This document shows positions 33,171 through 39,348 of a stretch of DNA of 64,000 nucleotides, in pieces. Position 1 is the first letter of the stretch. Each line of letters starts with the position of its first letter. Origin of the DNA: Phoronis australis (taxonomy: Eukaryota > Animalia > Phoronida); contig NMRA01000067.1 in assembly GCA_002633005.1 (NCBI GenBank), forward strand, positions 923,107 through 987,106, written 5' to 3'. The position numbers and the translations under genes are program-made. Under the pieces are notes generated by a model. The model saw nothing but the letters and a program-made list of their open reading frames with translations, was not told the DNA's origin and made no database searches.

Positions 33171-33262
33171 TGTAAACTTCGAACTTTTAGAAATAGTTCT
33201 CTATACCACTACAGTAGTGAGTCTCGCGTTACAGTAATCTATAATTGTTAGGCTACAATAAA

Positions 33263-33516
33263 CAAGGTACCTAAACTACACGGTCAATGGACTCATCCGC
33301 TTCCTGGGTCAGCTGACATCACCATTTTGTCCGTGACCCGTGTTTGGCGGTCCGTTAACCGTGTTTCCTCGGGAATATGAGTCTGTGTCCCGTGTATTTG
33401 GGTGCGTGGATCATGTTTTGTGAGTCAGTGGACGGTGTTTGCAGGTCCGTGAGTCGAGTTCATGCGTCCGTGCCCCGTGTTTATGAGCCCGTTGACCGTG
33501 TAGTTTAGGTACCTTG
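33263..33516. mobile_element. MITE with 25-bp perfect TIR and 5-bp TSD (hAT5-type)
   Basis: CAAGGTACCTAAACTACACGGTCAA / TTGACCGTGTAGTTTAGGTACCTTG; ATAAA on both sides; diverged relatives at 46416-46640 and ~48460-48634. Confidence 0.85.
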
Positions 33517-34016
33517 ATAAACGGAGCTTACATATCACAAAAGTATCATAGCAGGTTGGCAATAAGGGGCAGACTTTCGCTTTGGTGATTAAGCCAAATC
33601 AGGGCCTAGTGGGCCAGCATTGCGCGGGGGGGTGGTTAAAATTTCTAGAAAAATAAGGTGAACCTTTTGATATCTTACAAATGACTCAACATTAGTTTTC
33701 AGCAAGGCCCTGGACGCTGCTTAATTATGGTGAAGGGAAATCTGTATCCGTGGCAACGATGGCTCTCAGGTCTATGTTCCAGAGATTAGACGAAATTAGT
33801 AATACCAAAAATGAGGATGCCGTGCACGGTTGCTCACAAAGAACGAAACTCAGAAGTAATGTGGTCCACAAATAGAACACTCTCACATTACCTCCTGCCA
33901 TATTTTGAAATCAGGCTTTATTAAATGAGTGATTACACCTCATTACATACTCGAACGGAAATATTTGGTAGAATGGCTTTGCGTAATTTTTCATCTGATT
34001 GCATTTTAGTTAGTTA

Positions 34017-34259
34017 GTGGTGTGGTGTCTTAGACACAGGGTTAGATGTGTAGTTAGTGTAGCTTAGTGTAGTTAGTGCTTGCACTTTCTAGCTTTCAGC
34101 TTCTACGACCACCTAGTCCTCTGAGACGAATTAGGAAGGCATATATAAGACCCGCCTTGGTGGCTTTTAACTACCTCTAATCAAGACTCTTGCAGTACCT
34201 CCTCGTGGTACACCATGGTAACTGGGCACCTTGCTGCCCCAGGCTAAATTTTGCAAGGG
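34017..34259 (+). ncRNA. HDV-like self-cleaving ribozyme at the element 5' end
   Basis: P1 GTGGTGT(34017-23)/ACACCAT(34210-16) with G1-U wobble; P2 CTCTTGCAG(34187-95)/TTGCAAGGG(34251-59); P3 ACC/GGT with L3 TCCTCGT(34200-06); P1.1 CC(34201-02)/GG(34217-18); P4 CTGGGCA..TGCCCCAG; J4/2 GCTAA with candidate catalytic C34244; J1/2 about 160 nt. Confidence 0.88.
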
Positions 34260-34668
34260 ATCTCGGAAGAGGTTAGGCTCTTAAAGGTGCAACGTGCATG
34301 ACCCATCGGTGTATGGATATGCTCTGGCGTTCACCAACCTAACTCCCAGCTATGGGCAAATAGCACCCTTCATTGGTTGGGCTCAAGACTTACTACCTTG
34401 TCCCGTAAAATACTAGCTTTTTGTGGCTGAGCGGACGTGGTGCCTTTCAGATGCTCTCCACATCCCTGGCACTCAACGGTCAGAAGAACTGCAGGGAGCT
34501 GCAGGTGGAGCCGACCCCCCCATCAGAGTGGACGAAGTGTCTGTTGGATACCTTACTTGTCCTACGCACTCAACGTTCAGAAGGGCAGGAGACGACGGAT
34601 TGTCTTCTTGGTCAGGGGTCCGGGAGAGGTCACTCCCGGCTGCCACATTGTGTCAGTGAACATACCGG

Positions 34669-34907
34669 TGCGTGGCAGTTTACCGATTCTAAGCCATCAC
34701 CTCATCGGCGTCGGGTGGGCGTCAGGGGCCACGCATGACGGTGGGAGGGGTTCTTTAACCCTTATTGGTCAGTTGCCGCCCGCCTTAAGCCTGGCAGCCC
34801 CAGGCCAGTAGGGAACTGACCCGCCGCGGTTAGCCTGCCCCTTTGGGCGTAGGGGGCTTAGAGGTTGTTACAACCTCGACAGGCTTATCGTTACTCCATC
34901 GCCTGCT
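34669..34907 (+). promoter_or_regulatory. Dicistrovirus IGR-type IRES-like triple pseudoknot upstream of pol
   Basis: P1.1 TGCGTGGC(34669-76)/GCCACGCA(34728-35); PKII CGGCG(34706-10)/CGCCG(34822-26); PKIII GGTGGG(34740-45)/CCCGCC(34779-84); SL-IV GGGTT-CTTT-AACCC; stem GGTCAGTT/AACTGACC; SL-V GCCTGG-CAGCC-CCAGGC; domain 3 AGCCTG/CAGGCT with CCCCT-TTGGGCGT-AGGGG and SL-III GAGGTTG-TTA-CAACCTC; PKI GGGCG(34845-49)/CGCCT(34900-04); then in-frame GCT. Confidence 0.8.
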
Positions 34908-37900
34908 TCAAGACTTATTACAGAAGTAAACGTCCATACGGATGCTGGACGGCGCTACTGGGAAAGTGCAGCCGGACAGAACATCCGCCGTGGCGCCAGA
35001 AAGCGCGGACCTAGAAAGAAACGTAGAGGTAAAAGAGCTGGCAAACGAGCCCGTCAACTCAAGTACGAAAGACTTCAACTCAACCGTCTCAGGATTGGTT
35101 ACTGTAATATACGTGGCATACGGGGCAGCAAGCATATACTGGATAAAATCTGTGCGGGCTACGACATTCTCCTGTTTCAAGAAACCAAACTCAAAGACCT
35201 AACAGACTTTGAACTCGAAGGTTTCATTTTTCCTAGAGAGGGCATCACCAATGGCCTGGCGTACGCAATCAACAAACACAGCCACACCATGGTAGAGCTT
35301 GTGGATACTCACAGTTTCACTACCACTGACAGGCAACTACAGATTATAAGTATCACTGATCCTGGTTTCTGCGACCCATTCACACTAGTCAATCTGTATA
35401 TACGGGGAAACTCCTCCCCTAGTTGCGACCATTGGAATTTTCTTCACAATCTGCTTCACATCTATCCCGACATTCTCATTGTTGGTGACTTTAATGCTCG
35501 TCATTCCAGCTGGGATGTCTACGGTGTGAACCCAAATGGTAAAGGTCTCGCCGAATGCCTTCCAGAACTAGATTTATATATTCTCAACTCTGGTGAACCC
35601 ACTAGGATGGCTGAGAGACCGGGTGACAAGGACTCGTGCATTGACCTTGCTCTGTGCAGCGACAATCTTCGCGACCGTGCTAAGTGGCGCAGGAGTTGTC
35701 AAGCTGGAAGCGATCACTACTTGTGTGAAGTTCAACTACACCACCAATTAAAGGCTCCAGTAACGACTTACAAACGGCCCTACAATAATACCGAAGGGGA
35801 TAAAATCTGGAAATCAGTGTGCAGACACGCCAAAAGCTTACATAAGCACGTATGCCACCACAGGAAGCAGAACCCCCCTACTTGGTGGAATAAAGATGTT
35901 GACACTGCCTGGGCCAACAAGCGCTCCAAAGAGCGGGATTTTGATCGTGCACGTCAAAACTGCACACCGGAAGAGTTCACGGTCGTCAGAACAGCCAGAA
36001 ACAGGGCCACTGCCCTGTTCAAACGCTCAGCATCCGAGGCTGCCAATCGTCGATGGGATGAGCTTTGCAGCCGATCCAACTTGACAGCTACAGATTTCTG
36101 GCACTTCCATCGTAACATGGACAAGAGACGTGCTCCCCCCAGATCCATCCTACTGAATGCAAGCAACACCATTCTCAGGAATGACAGGGAACAGGGTGAG
36201 GCTTTTCTCCTGCGTTTCATCCAGCAAAGTGACCACAGTGATGAATCTGAAAGAAACCTCCTCATCCAACAACTAGATGGACTTTGCAAGACAGCTGAAC
36301 AGGACAGTCAATTCTCTGCAGCAGAGGTTGCGGAGGCTATCAAAACTTGCAAAGAGGGTGCCCCTGGCCCCGATGGCGTGAGAGTCCTGACACTCAAGTC
36401 TTTGCCTGACTTTCTGCTGGCCAAGCTTGTGAAGTCCTACAACGTCAGTTTGGCCACTGGAATCATCCCTCACATCTGGACAGATGCCTTCTTAATTCCT
36501 GTACCAAAACCTGGAAAAGACCATCGTGCACTCAAGGGATATCGCATCATAGTGATGCAGAACGTCATTGGAAAAATCCCTGAAAGGATCATGGCGCAAA
36601 GAATCACCAAGTTAATTGAACCCTGGCTCCTCCCAGGAATGGGTGCTTATCGACCTGGTAGAGATTCATGGGCCAACGCAGCTTCTGTTGCGGATGAGAT
36701 ATGGCAAGGTTTTGAAAACAAAGAAAACACTCTCCTCGTTGGCCTTGATCTAGAAGATGCGTACAATTCTGTTCAACTTCCAAAACTTGCGGATGGCATG
36801 CTTCATCTCGGTATTCCTGTACGATGCATTAGATGGGTGATGAGTGCCCTCAACAGCCGGCGATGCATGCTAAAACATCGTACATGGCGTTCAGAATGGG
36901 TATCTGTCAACACAGGCTTACCCCAAGGTTCACCTCTGTCCCCAGTGCTGTTCAATATCTACACCCTCCCACTCGCCAGACTGAACCGCGCTGACTGCCG
37001 ACTTCGCACCTTTGCAGACGACATGCTGCTGTCATCGCAAGGACAAACACATCATGAGATTCTCCACAAAGCACAGTCTTCATTGATAAAAATATGCGAG
37101 TTTTGTGCTACCAGCGGAATGAGCTGCAATGGAGACAAATGTGAAGCTCTCTTCTGTACTCTGGACAATCGCCTCAGTGTTGATGATTTCCCTTGCCCTA
37201 CCTACGATGGGAAGTTGATTGCTACATCTGACCACATGCGTCACTTGGGTGTAGAACTTGACCGCAGGCTCAACTTCACAACTCAAGTTAACAGTATGAT
37301 CAGCCGTGCCAACAGAGGAATCAATGCCCTTAGGGCTGCGGCTGGTCGGAAGGCGGAGGAAAGGCACCTCGTCATGCTTTATAAAGCCCTGGTCACTTCG
37401 ATCTTCGACTACGCTCTCCCCATGATCAACATCAGTAAAAATCAAATCAACAGACTTGAGAGGCTCCAGAACATTGGTCTTCGCGTCATCACTGGATGTA
37501 CGAGAACTACGTCAGTCACAGCATTACGTTACCTTGTCGGTATTCCCAGCATTGCAGACAGACAATCCCTTCTACAAGGTATTACTGTAGCCAAGGCTGT
37601 TCAAAGCCCCTTCCATCCATTACACAGTCAAGTGAAGACTGCACTTGACAGGTGCGTGAACTCCGTCCCTGCAACAGAAACTTATGGACTTCGTCCTAGA
37701 CCTTTTCGCAATGCCTCCCACCAAAGACTTAGCAGGTGCTCGTGGACTGTCGCTGCTGTTAACGCAACCATGGGTCTCATCGGCGAACACATGATCGCGC
37801 AAGTTGCTGCTTGGCTGCCAGTACAAGAACTTGGTGAGGAACCGAATGTCATCATTGCTTTCAACAGGGAAGCTCGGGAATGGCCTCCTGGAGTAGCCCA

Positions 37901-38606
37901 AGCATTGTGCCGTCAGCAATGGCGTGATCTTGGCGGTATTAATGCCATCATTGTAGCAACTGATGGATCCTTCGATGGTGAAACTAATCGTGCGGGATGG
38001 GGCTATCAAATACGCTGTGCTAACAACGTCATTGCAGAAGGTAGTGGCTGCCACCATATATCCACAAGCAGTACGCGGATGGAGTTTGAGGCTATACAAC
38101 GAGCCCTAACCAAGCTGTCACTCCTAGACCTGGAGAATCACACCATTATCTTTGCCACCGATTCCATGGCAGTGTTGATGAAAGTTCAATCTGGAAACCT
38201 CCCAGCCAACTGGGGTGTCTTCCGATCACGCCACCCTCATCATGTGGTGATCTGGTCTTTCGTACCTGGCCACGCCGGTGTCTTGATTAATGAGCGTGCA
38301 GATTACCTCGCTGGCTCATGCACCACCAACCAACCCCTCTACTTATATTCGGCTGACGTTAAGCTGCTGGCTCGCAAACGCAACCACGAGCAGACTGCAT
38401 CCCAGCTGGCTGAGTTCAATGATGGCAGCCGCCTGCTCGAAGCCGGTATTATTTATGGCCATGCTGCGAAGAGTCACAAGAAGGGCCGTGCCCAAGTGCT
38501 ATCTAATCATATGCTTACAGGCAACGTCAGCCCTGGAGTTCTGCGCCTTCTGCTGTCACGGGGATGGTCTGGGGAGGGGATTAATGCACCAGCATATCCC
38601 CAATGA
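34905..38606 (+). CDS. Retrotransposon pol: APE endonuclease, reverse transcriptase, RNase H; 1233 aa if initiated at non-AUG GCT 34905 (ORF track starts at internal ATG 35289)
   Basis: Frame is open from 34812 with no ATG before 35289. The upstream part encodes APE N-terminal motifs RIGYCNIRG and DILLFQET. Downstream: VGDFNARH, CIDL, GSDH (APE); LDLEDAYNSV, GLPQGSPLSPVLFNIY, FADD, HLGVELDRRL (RT); ATDGS, MEFEAI, TDS, VPGHAGVLINERAD (RNase H). Exact start is inferred from the IRES model. Confidence 0.92.
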   Translation, partial: ASRLITEVNVHTDAGRRYWESAAGQNIRRGARKRGPRKKRRGKRAGKRARQLKYERLQLNRLRIGYCNIRGIRGSKHILDKICAGYDILLFQETKLKDLTDFELEGFIFPREGITNGLAYAINKHSHTMVELVDTHSFTTTDRQLQIISITDPGFCDPFTLVNLYIRGNSSPSCDHWNFLHNLLHIYPDILIVGDFNARHSSWDVYGVNPNGKGLAECLPELDLYILNSGEPTRMAERPGDKDSCIDLALCSDNLRDRAKWRRSCQAGSDHYLCEVQLHHQLKAPVTTYKRPYNNTEGDKIWKSVCRHAKSLHKHVCHHRKQNPPTWWNKDVDTAWANKRSKERDFDRARQNCTPEEFTVVRTARNRATALFKRSASEAANRRWDELCSRSNLTATDFWHFHRNMDKRRAPPRSILLNASNTILRNDREQGEAFLLRFIQQSDHSDESERNLLIQQLDGLCKTAEQDSQFSAAEVAEAIKTCKEGAPGPDGVRVLTLKSLPDFLLAKLVKSYNVSLATGIIPHIWTDAFLIPVPKPGKDHRALKGYRIIVMQNVIGKIPERIMAQRITKLIEPWLLPGMGAYRPGRDSWANAASVADEIWQGFENKENTLLVGLDLEDAYNSVQLPKLADGMLHLGIPVRCIRWVMSALNSRRCMLKHRTWRSEWVSVNTGLPQGSPLSPVLFNIYTLPLARLNRADCRLRTFADDMLLSSQGQTHHEILHKAQSSLIKICEFCATSGMSCNGDKCEALFCTLDNRLSVDDFPCPTYDGKLIATSDHMRHLGVELDRRLNFTTQVNSMISRANRGINALRAAAGRKAEERHLVMLYKALVTSIFDYALPMINISKNQINRLERLQNIGLRVITGCTRTTSVTALRYLVGIPSIADRQSLLQGITVAKAVQSPFHPLHSQVKTALDRCVNSVPATETYGLRPRPFRNASHQRLSRCSWTVAAVNATMGLIGEHMIAQVAAWLPVQELGEEPNVIIAFNREAREWPPGVAQALCRQQWRDLGGINAIIVATDGSFDGETNRAGWGYQIRCANNVIAEGSGCHHISTSSTRMEFEAIQRALTKLSLLDLENHTIIFATDSMAVLMKVQSGNLPANWGVFRSRHPHHVVIWSFVPGHAGVLINERADYLAGSCTTNQPLYLYSADVKLLARKRNHEQTASQLAEFNDGSRLLEAGIIYGHAAKSHKKGRAQVLSNHMLTGNVSPGVLRLLLSRGWSGEGINAPAYPQ

Positions 38607-38607
38607 T

Positions 38608-38644
38608 CCTGTCCGTGACAGGTATTACAGGTATTACAGGTATT
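38608..38644 (+). repeat. Retrotransposon 3' end: CCTGTC-CGT-GACAGG hairpin plus (ACAGGTATT)x3 tail
   Basis: Begins one nucleotide after the TGA stop; three 9-bp units at 38618-38644 abut the TSD. Confidence 0.85.
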
Positions 38645-39348
38645 TAGTTATACTTACATTGCTTAAATCACTGGACATGGGAACAGCCCACTATTCCGAA
38701 GGTTCGCTACTTCGAAGTTTCGATATTCCGAAGGTTCAATGACAACGAAAATATCTAAAACTTCTGACTCAGGTGCAACTGTTACACTTTTACATCCAAA
38801 AATAAATGACACTTCTGTTAAATAGATGCAAGTATACCAAAAATAACGCACGAGTAATAAATCACTTTGTTTGAATTTCATGCGCATGCGATATCGTCCG
38901 CATGTCTTAGGAGCACTGAAAAATAAGTACGTACTAGCATTTCTGAAAGAATGTGAAGTATTATGTTGATGAATAATCAACCACAATATATTCATCAAAT
39001 CCATGTCAAGATTGCATCGTTTCACAGCCCGACTAAAGAGTTTAGGGCTGACTAAAAAGTTTAGGGCAGCTGTGCTGCAACCTTACCTACCAGAAGTACT
39101 CGCACGGCAGGGTCAAAAATAAATGTTAAGTTAGTAGGCGAATCCTGTCCCTGCCAGTCTTCATGAAAGTCTCATTCAGTCTTCTTAAAAGAGAATGCCA
39201 CCCGATTTAATTAGTCTTTTTTACCGTCTTAATCGGTCTATATCCACATCGCCTATTATAAGGTCAACCTCACCTTGCCGAGAGGTGTCATGTTAACCTG
39301 TGAGGAAGGTGAGAAACGACGCAGCGACGTCAGTGGTTCGTCTGCAGA

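Follow-up and report, generated by a model that had tools for sequence, protein, structure and literature searches.

The stretch of DNA analysed here is a 64,000-nt window from Phoronis australis; all positions given below are those of the whole stretch, and every feature of the element described lies on the forward strand. The window holds a full-length copy of a retrotransposon lacking long terminal repeats (non-LTR), of about 4.63 kb, at 34017..38643, recognised from its Pfam domains and from the evidence of other copies. Three parts of this copy are considered: a predicted hepatitis delta virus (HDV)-like ribozyme at its 5′ end, a conserved RNA structure in its 5′ untranslated region (UTR) that resembles the type 6 internal ribosome entry sites (IRESs) of dicistroviruses, and a single coding frame with no AUG ahead of its endonuclease motifs.

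A full-length retrotransposon copy

The element is an APE-type non-LTR retrotransposon, with APE endonuclease, reverse transcriptase and RNase H domains, a target-site duplication (TSD), a 3′ tail and many 5′-truncated copies. It has a GC content of 50 %, compared with 39 % for the window, within which it occurs once. The TSD is a perfect 7-bp repeat, TTAGTTA, found at 34010..34016, where it adjoins the junction at 34017, and again at 38644..38650. The 3′ copy shares 1 nt (the last T) with the tail, leaving the end of the element uncertain by 1–2 nt. The 3′ UTR is short (38608..38644), consisting of a hairpin at 38608-22 and a tail of three perfect 9-nt units at 38618-38644. Other copies end at 38636-38641, where RNA reads pass into different flanks.

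At the 5′ end, the boundary at 34017 is supported independently of the TSD, because contigs of other copies break there. In DNA contigs of the same organism that stem from other copies, similarity starts at 34017 and the sequence before it is unrelated; loose contig ends fall exactly at this base (two in run X1, three in run X4), and the pieces that begin there are records 4 and 5 of X1 and record 11 of X4. The initial annotation had used the TSD to place nucleotide 1 of the element at the predicted ribozyme cleavage site, and had proposed that the insertion was recent. The TTAGTTA repeats and the copy junctions at 34017 agree on the former, and the latter is in keeping with the intact open reading frame (ORF) and with a piece of another copy, spanning 34017-34465, that has only 5 differences in 449 bases. 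The family is multicopy: 520 of the 728 RNA reads aligned from run X8 are only 95–99 % alike. Depth of RNA reads over the element is 3′-biased, climbing toward the 3′ end.

Relatives with 45–55 % protein identity were identified in public metagenome assemblies (32 proteins, 63 loci); neither this protein search nor the Atlas search yielded a clade name for the family. Most are decayed or 5′-truncated, among them L001 and L021/L022. Eleven sequences, including those of the window, L002, L001 and a set of loci referred to as the L027 group, make up alignment A2, which is the basis for the covariation and start-site counts given below.

A coding frame with no AUG before its endonuclease motifs

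From stop to stop, one frame of 1264 codons remains open over 34812-38606, with the TGA at 38604-06. The part predicted to be translated is 34905..38606, 1233 codons and the TGA, with GCU at 34905-07 as the predicted first codon. The frame encodes an APE endonuclease domain (aa 99-302, 35106..35717; Pfam PF03372, E 7e-12, and PF14529, E 2.4e-15), a reverse transcriptase domain, RVT_1 (aa 564-815, 36501..37256; PF00078, E 2.7e-28), and an RNase H domain (aa 1045-1168, 37944..38315; PF00075, E 4.5e-09). The first in-frame ATG, at 35289, is codon 160 of the open frame and lies 3′ of the N-terminal APE motifs, bearing out the early description of an ORF that lacks an AUG before them. Nine aligned relatives show no change in these motifs, which are presumed to be catalytic, as in APE-family nucleases.

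From 34017 to 34904, the 5′ UTR extends over about 890 nt and includes eight upstream ATGs. The RNA structure described below contains an in-frame TAG (34809-11), upstream of which the same frame is open from 34431, without an ATG. Read-through of this stop codon from the upstream frame was rejected on account of that lack of an ATG from 34431 on. It is also ruled out by the presence of AAA or GAA in place of the TAG in the L027 group and by 1-nt indels, which show that the region is non-coding. A 96-codon ATG frame at 34451-34738, a candidate upstream ORF1, was likewise rejected, as it is not conserved in the relatives. A further ATG, at 34215, is in strong context and in the main frame, within the 3′ strand of ribozyme helix P1; it is followed by a stop after 10 codons.

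The position of the start is derived from reading frames and not from protein. An in-frame TGA stands 8–9 codons upstream of the predicted first codon in nine of the 11 sequences (the L027 group and L001), and there is no in-frame ATG between the upstream stop and this codon in 10 of the 11. The nearest in-frame ATG downstream is 43–128 codons away, or there is none at all. Conservation at the protein level begins 9–10 codons after the predicted first codon; 27 or 30 nt separate the CCU before this codon from the first residue that is conserved, and the indels upstream are not multiples of three. The upstream stops, and the spacing in multiples of three that sets in exactly at the CCU, confine initiation to a short stretch without AUG along the 3′ edge of the RNA structure. 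The two copies with long intact frames have GCU (window) and GCA (L002) as the first codon following CGCCU, and across the aligned set this codon is GCU, GCA, GAA or ACA, in frame.

A conserved RNA structure in the 5′ UTR

When the 5′ UTR was compared by BLAST with the 63 loci, 34609-34858 was found to be 70–82 % identical in 16 of them, and its 3′ part was found in two more (18 of 63). In A2 this RNA has 68–72.5 % identity to the window, compared with 55–59 % for coding DNA and 39–51 % for the rest of the UTR, of which it is the best conserved part. Indels of 1, 4, 5 and 7 nt occur within it, and it is therefore non-coding. Of 66 pairs predicted by RNAalifold, 28 show compensatory changes. 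A pseudoknotted model has 77 pairs (92.3 % paired), and both sides have changed in 28 of these; this count was reached in none of 500 shuffles, and fell to 4–8 when the partners were slid. It is certain that this 5′ UTR RNA is conserved and covarying as a structure. The helices based on covariation span 34668-34904, in close agreement with the 34669-34904 originally set as the bounds of an IRES.

Three domains can be read. Domain 1 (34668..34736) is made up of nested, covarying helices: helix A (34668-76/34728-36; compensatory changes in six of nine pairs), helix B, which contains a GUCAGG motif (34683-87/34721-26; one of five), and hairpin C (34693-99/34713-20; four of seven). The loop of hairpin C, 34706-10, is the 5′ strand of pseudoknot II (PKII), and its partner is at 34822..34826. 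The two PKII strands change together across lineages, giving four cognate pair sets, and enclose domain 2; in L001, pairing of the loop with its own partner is favoured by about 3 kcal/mol.

Domain 2 (34740..34821), drawn from the alignment and the covariation model, starts with a G-rich strand at 34740-45 that is compatible with a C-rich strand at 34779-84, the two being invariant candidates for pseudoknot III (PKIII). A hairpin resembling stem-loop IV (SLIV) of the viral IRESs follows at 34746-63, and then helix F (34767-73/34815-21), which encloses the C-rich strand and a hairpin resembling stem-loop V (SLV) at 34790-34804. The loop of the latter, CAGCC (34795-99), is invariant in all 11 sequences.

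Domain 3 (34828..34904) comprises helix I (34828-36/34881-89; compensatory changes in six of nine pairs), hairpin J (34837-57; two of six), hairpin K (34861-77; four of five), a linker and the candidate 3′ strand of pseudoknot I (PKI). Hairpin J is like an anticodon stem-loop, with a 7-nt loop containing GGGCG at 34845-49, which can pair with CGCCU at 34900-04. In this candidate PKI, the GGG of the loop is paired with CCU 34902-04, directly before GCU.

Resemblance to type 6 IRESs

In type 6a and 6b IRESs, domain 2 is embedded in domain 1, SLIV has a U-rich loop and SLV has a conserved CAGCC loop (10.1101/2024.04.17.590008). PKI of type 6 IRESs is immediately upstream of a non-AUG first codon (10.1101/2024.04.17.590008; PMC12221177), which in types 6a and 6b is commonly GCU, GCA or CAA (PMC10516663). 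The element RNA is like these types, represented by cricket paralysis virus and Taura syndrome virus, in having three domains with domain 2 inside domain 1, a pseudoknot between the loop of domain 1 and the strand that follows domain 2, a U-rich-loop hairpin followed by a helix that encloses a CAGCC-loop hairpin, and a 3′ edge directly before a non-AUG first codon, GCU or GCA. The SLIV-like loop is CUUU in the window, AUUUU in the L027 group, U-rich in L001 and GUAU in L002.

The L1.1b loop motif of type 6d is G(U/A)CAGG (PMC10275262). This motif is present as GUCAGG in nine of the 11 sequences, at 34721-26 in the window, on the 3′ side of the internal loop in domain 1; L001 and L002 carry GCCAGG in its place, and L1.1a matches at only 4–5 of 6 positions. 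The element RNA is thus like the nedicistrovirus-like type 6d in its GUCAGG and its pyrimidine-rich SLIV-like hairpin, but unlike that type, which has no SLV, carries a UACUA motif in a loop and is about 165 nt long, it has an SLV. The best reading is that the element RNA works as a type 6-like, AUG-independent IRES, and it is considered likely that it does so. An 18-mer search with the SLV hairpin for viral relatives returned one phage-contig match, which was judged to be due to chance.

A predicted HDV-like ribozyme at the 5′ end

At 34017-34259 the helices P1, P1.1, P2, P3 and P4 of an HDV-like ribozyme, a nested double pseudoknot, can all be read in canonical order. The 5′ strand of P1 (34017..34023) forms seven of seven pairs with 34210-34216, the first being a G.U wobble, and cleavage is predicted immediately 5′ of G34017. 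Within 600 nt upstream, the only perfect 7-bp partners for the P1 3′ strand are 34017-23 and 34022-28, both starting with a G.U wobble. The first P1 base of the first register, 34017, coincides in position with the 5′ junction of the other copies; since contigs of these copies start at 34017, full-length copies begin at their 5′ end with that base. Between P1 and the core is a peripheral J1/2 region of 163 nt (34024..34186), with a 9-nt tandem repeat at 34048-34078, which is poorly conserved (39 % identity with L002).

The core (34187..34259) was read from the sequence as P2 (8 bp, 34187-94/34252-59), P3 (3 bp, 34197-99/34207-09) with a 7-nt L3 of HDV type (34200-06), the P1 3′ strand (34210-16), P1.1 (G34217-18 with C34201-02), P4 (34222-42; 7 bp, one bulge) and J4/2 (34243-51), which contains the predicted catalytic C34244. 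It has an orthologue in L002 at 409-488, where 61 of 82 columns are invariant, compared with only 55 % identity to the window in coding DNA, and no other stretch of the element is as well conserved between the two. Compensatory changes are found in L002: one P3 pair is changed from A-U to G-C, and three P2 pairs change yet stay paired, including C-G to A-U and U-A to C-G. L002 is without its first ~16 nt, so its P1 is not comparable. Rfam matches to the core are weak and below threshold, being drz-agam-2-2 in the window (13.9 bits, E 0.9, gathering score 38) and HDV-F-prausnitzii at the homologous spot in L002 (12.4 bits, E 8, gathering score 44). It is very likely that the HDV-like ribozyme is real.

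Proposed mechanism and alternative explanations

Taken together, the copy in the window is proposed to be that of a full-length, multicopy retrotransposon, the RNA of which is cut at 34017 by an HDV-like ribozyme, and the AUG-less frame of which is likely to be translated from GCU 34905 by a type 6-like IRES; as a whole, this proposal is judged to have somewhat the better of the balance. The element RNA would be cut from longer transcripts by the ribozyme exactly at base 34017, and cleavage would leave a 5′-OH, uncapped RNA. The ribosome could then be bound by domains 1 and 2, with the L1.1-like loop and the hairpins resembling SLIV and SLV as points of contact, and domain 3 would set CCU 34902-04 as a codon mimic, so that GCU would be decoded first, with no initiator tRNA. 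CCU is also the codon mimic of cricket paralysis virus. In the initial annotation it was further suggested that such initiation could favour translation under eIF2alpha-phosphorylation stress.

Several observations weigh against this proposal. For the ribozyme, Rfam finds no family at gathering score in the whole 64-kb window. A loose HDV descriptor gives two full matches in the window, compared with 0.23 per 128 kb in 60 shuffles, and five core loci, compared with 0.75 expected; the second full match, at 33610, is apparently spurious. The descriptor was rejected as evidence, being too permissive, and in a relaxed version it matches many places, including domain 3 of the IRES-like RNA. The case for the ribozyme therefore rests on conservation, compensatory changes and copy junctions, because the descriptor is not significant alone. 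RNA-seq (runs X8-X10 and X6) has a depth of 0–5x over the 5′ third, on both strands, shows no accumulation of read starts at 34017 and is uninformative on the RNA end; no splice joint into the element is found among these alignments.

The pairing of the two RNAs is also incomplete. The L027 group has the same IRES-like RNA with a different 5′ end. When the ribozyme model R1 was run on 64 sources, only two matched, both of them training sequences and neither in the L027 group, and Rfam gives no ribozyme match on the 5′ end of that group. The ribozyme and IRES-like modules are therefore not always found together, since the 5′ end of the L027 group is matched by neither model nor Rfam; L001 is uninformative on this point because it is 5′-truncated. 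Of the coupled system proposed in the initial annotation, both modules are accordingly present in the window and L002, but not in the L027 group, where the IRES-like RNA is present without a detectable ribozyme. The 5′ ends of this group (L027 3484-3640, L014 3234-3400, L005 and L041; alignment A3) have a P3-L3-P3′-like motif resembling that of the window ribozyme, and their first bases pair over 7 bp with a site ~130 nt downstream, with a poor P1.1. Such an end may represent an HDV-like ribozyme that has diverged and has a very large P4.

As for the IRES-like RNA, only the window copy and L002 have long intact frames, the other nine aligned copies being decayed. The candidate PKI is 90.9 % paired with zero covariation, and the PKIII strands, being invariant, also have none. 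A purely nested alternative (helices D and G), in which 34740-44 pairs with 34899-903 and 34779-81 with 34811-13, fits the PKI and PKIII strands equally, at 90.9 % paired each. Three decayed copies (L014, L041 and L047) have a central mismatch in PKII, and L047 breaks two of the five PKI pairs. The minimum-energy fold of 34669-34904 is ordinary (z -1.08; 28 of 200 shuffles fold as well). In L002 there is an in-frame AUG 16 codons upstream of the predicted start, inside hairpin J. Of the virus-like IRES first suggested for this region, the conservation, covariation, type 6 hallmarks and flush join to GCU are thus borne out, but PKI never covaries.

The explanation that best survives beside the proposed one, though it is rather unlikely, is that the conserved 5′ UTR RNA is real but not an IRES. 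It would instead be a binding site for the element's own protein, or act in RNA stability or export, with translation beginning at a near-cognate codon or helped by the ribozyme. The 5′ RNA pseudoknot of R2 is a binding site for its own protein. An in-frame AUC, AUU, GUG, ACG or CUG is found 2–7 codons upstream of the proposed start in every lineage, PKI is so far a candidate pairing, and 286-nt Rfam searches of the window and L027 return no IRES family even at E<=10. Ribozyme-promoted translation of retrotransposons is also cited as known (Ruminski 2011, via PMC13725137 and PMC4908430). However, the near-cognate codons vary in kind and place between lineages and sit in paired regions, and a 5′ UTR of this length, with its eight upstream ATGs, is unfavourable for scanning. 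The CAGCC loop, the U-rich SLIV loop and GUCAGG are present in the right order and topology, and the RNA ends flush with the frame, as would be expected of a type 6-like IRES.

It is less probable, and altogether doubtful, that the RNA is an IRES of factor-dependent or other mechanism, its partial likeness to type 6 having arisen by convergence or extending to a shared domain 2 only. Unlike type 6a and 6b IRESs (176–205 nt), it is larger, at about 240 nt, and its domain 3 is elaborated into a three-way junction with an extra closing helix and the candidate anticodon mimic on a hairpin loop. The L1.1 motifs of types 6a, 6b and 6c, U[G/A]A[U/C]C and UGCUA, were not found in it, and it has no covariance-model similarity. 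A 444-nt contig (run X7, organism C, record 29) matches only 34764-34801 (38 nt, 6 differences); it shares just the SLV region, in another context with different flanks, and the hairpin may therefore travel as a module. On the other side, an AUG-less start flush with the structure is type 6 behaviour, whereas other IRES classes generally use AUG and initiator tRNA (10.1101/2024.04.17.590008).

That the ribozyme is a relic or inactive, with a capped RNA made from an internal promoter and 34017 as the transcription start, is very improbable. In its favour, RNA-seq is silent on the RNA end, an internal promoter and a ribozyme share one 77-nt stretch in L1Tc (PMC3383444) and the L027 group manages without this ribozyme; on the other side, the core is where conservation between the window and L002 is highest, with compensatory pairs, and the P1 partner is exactly at the copy junction.

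Other features of the family and flanking repeats

Two smaller hairpins were noted in the 5′ UTR. One, at 34349..34364, holds an AUG that starts a 3-codon mini upstream ORF from 34352. The motif occurs in all four lineages (L002 ~600-690, in two copies; L001 ~447-470; the 5′ UTR of L014/L033) and has a 5-bp stem, a GGNNAA loop, a stop 2–3 codons after the AUG and a closing pair that changes from G-C to U-A. It may act as a mini upstream ORF or as a site for a protein. The other, at 34620..34639, is 5′ of the IRES-like core, with a covarying stem and an AGGNCA loop; an additional stem-loop, SLVI, is found upstream in some of the viral type 6 IRESs (10.1101/2024.04.17.590008). In L005 (3580-3664; = L004), the beginning of the IRES-like RNA is duplicated in inverted orientation, and a perfect long hairpin results. 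This duplication caused the only Rfam matches on nine loci (62.6 kb), miRNA-like chance matches that were rejected.

L021/L022 keep only the 3′ part of the IRES-like RNA, from inside the CAGCC hairpin, with unrelated sequence upstream; this is probably a 5′ truncation inside that RNA. From the X7 contig, a related organism may hold a more distant IRES-like element. At the 3′ ends of L001, the L027 group and L045, the tandem units are lineage-specific, with units of 9 nt in the window and L001 and of 5 nt in the L027 group; slippage on such units is apparently how the family renews its tail. In a collection of prokaryote genomes the sole relative was L065, a 34 %-identical fragment without UTR on a 1-kb contig of a metagenome-assembled genome of a sulfur-oxidising symbiont, most simply explained as misbinned host DNA. 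No relative was found by protein alignment against viral contigs.

Pfam searches of five neighbouring ORFs found nothing. At 33249-33530 there is a pair of 48-nt inverted repeats, 83 % complementary and 186 nt apart, which looks like a small terminal-inverted-repeat element, similar to a miniature inverted-repeat transposable element; RNA reads cover it on both strands and leave at 33516. Just upstream of the insertion, 33888-33966 is a very high-copy short repeat, with a contig word depth of 250–900 compared with ~20 for the element. Its letters vary at many places, and each of the four DNA runs has loose ends in it at 33888, 33921 and 33964-66.

Novelty and implications

HDV-like ribozymes that define the 5′ end are already known in non-LTR elements, and the new part is the type 6-like IRES in a retrotransposon. 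No report of such an IRES in a retrotransposon was found in the literature searched, and two recent surveys of type 6 IRES diversity never use the word retrotransposon. In a passage of a 2013 review the existence of these IRESs in non-LTR elements was raised as conditional speculation only (PMC3894237), and a 2024 preprint describes the viral IRESs as without sequence similarity to cellular elements and of obscure origin (10.1101/2024.04.17.590008).

A wider interpretation, for and against which the balance is about level, is that a cellular non-LTR family carries a genuine type 6 IRES, free of initiator tRNA and coupled to a ribozyme in at least two lineages, and that the shared CAGCC hairpin and L1.1b-type motif reflect exchange between retrotransposons and dicistro-like viruses. 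Type 6 IRESs are the simplest known eukaryotic translation start and are known only from RNA viruses. If the interpretation is true, this would be the first outside them, and a cellular reservoir or source for an IRES class of obscure origin; with a relative that resides in a genome and is inherited vertically, the origin of IRES RNA and its exchange could be tested directly. It would also explain how capless, ribozyme-processed, AUG-less retrotransposon RNAs are translated, a question that is open for R2, RTE and L1Tc. The annotation of retrotransposon ORFs would change, as start codons need not be AUG, and a GC-rich, structurally distinct type 6 variant would become available for mechanistic work.

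Comparison with known systems

Unlike the type 6 IRESs of dicistroviruses, the element RNA is in the 5′ UTR of a cellular retrotransposon and is GC-rich. Its ribozyme is like those of R2, RTE/drz-Agam-2 and L1Tc in having a core that is a nested double pseudoknot with a predicted catalytic C in J4/2, and, as in the 5′ HDV-like ribozymes of non-LTR elements, predicted cleavage at the first P1 base fixes the element's 5′ end. The drz-Agam-2 ribozymes of mosquito have large structured J1/2 domains and are cleaved at the first base of P1 (PMC4908430); a long J1/2 domain is likewise present in the element ribozyme. In contrast with the known R2, RTE and L1Tc ribozymes, this J1/2 is very long and the score is below Rfam thresholds. 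The host of the ribozyme is here a single-ORF family encoding APE, reverse transcriptase and RNase H.

That the capless RNA of such elements would need an IRES is an existing idea (PMC3383444; PMC13725137), and a ribozyme giving an uncapped RNA that is then translated from an IRES has already been proposed for L1Tc (PMC3383444). The element is like the Pr77/L1TcRz model of L1Tc, in which a 5′ ribozyme is followed by cap-independent translation of a single APE-reverse transcriptase-RNase H frame (PMC3383444). In L1Tc the IRES is hypothetical and undefined, whereas the P. australis element has, 400 nt downstream of the predicted ribozyme, a self-contained, conserved RNA in which a known IRES class can be recognised.

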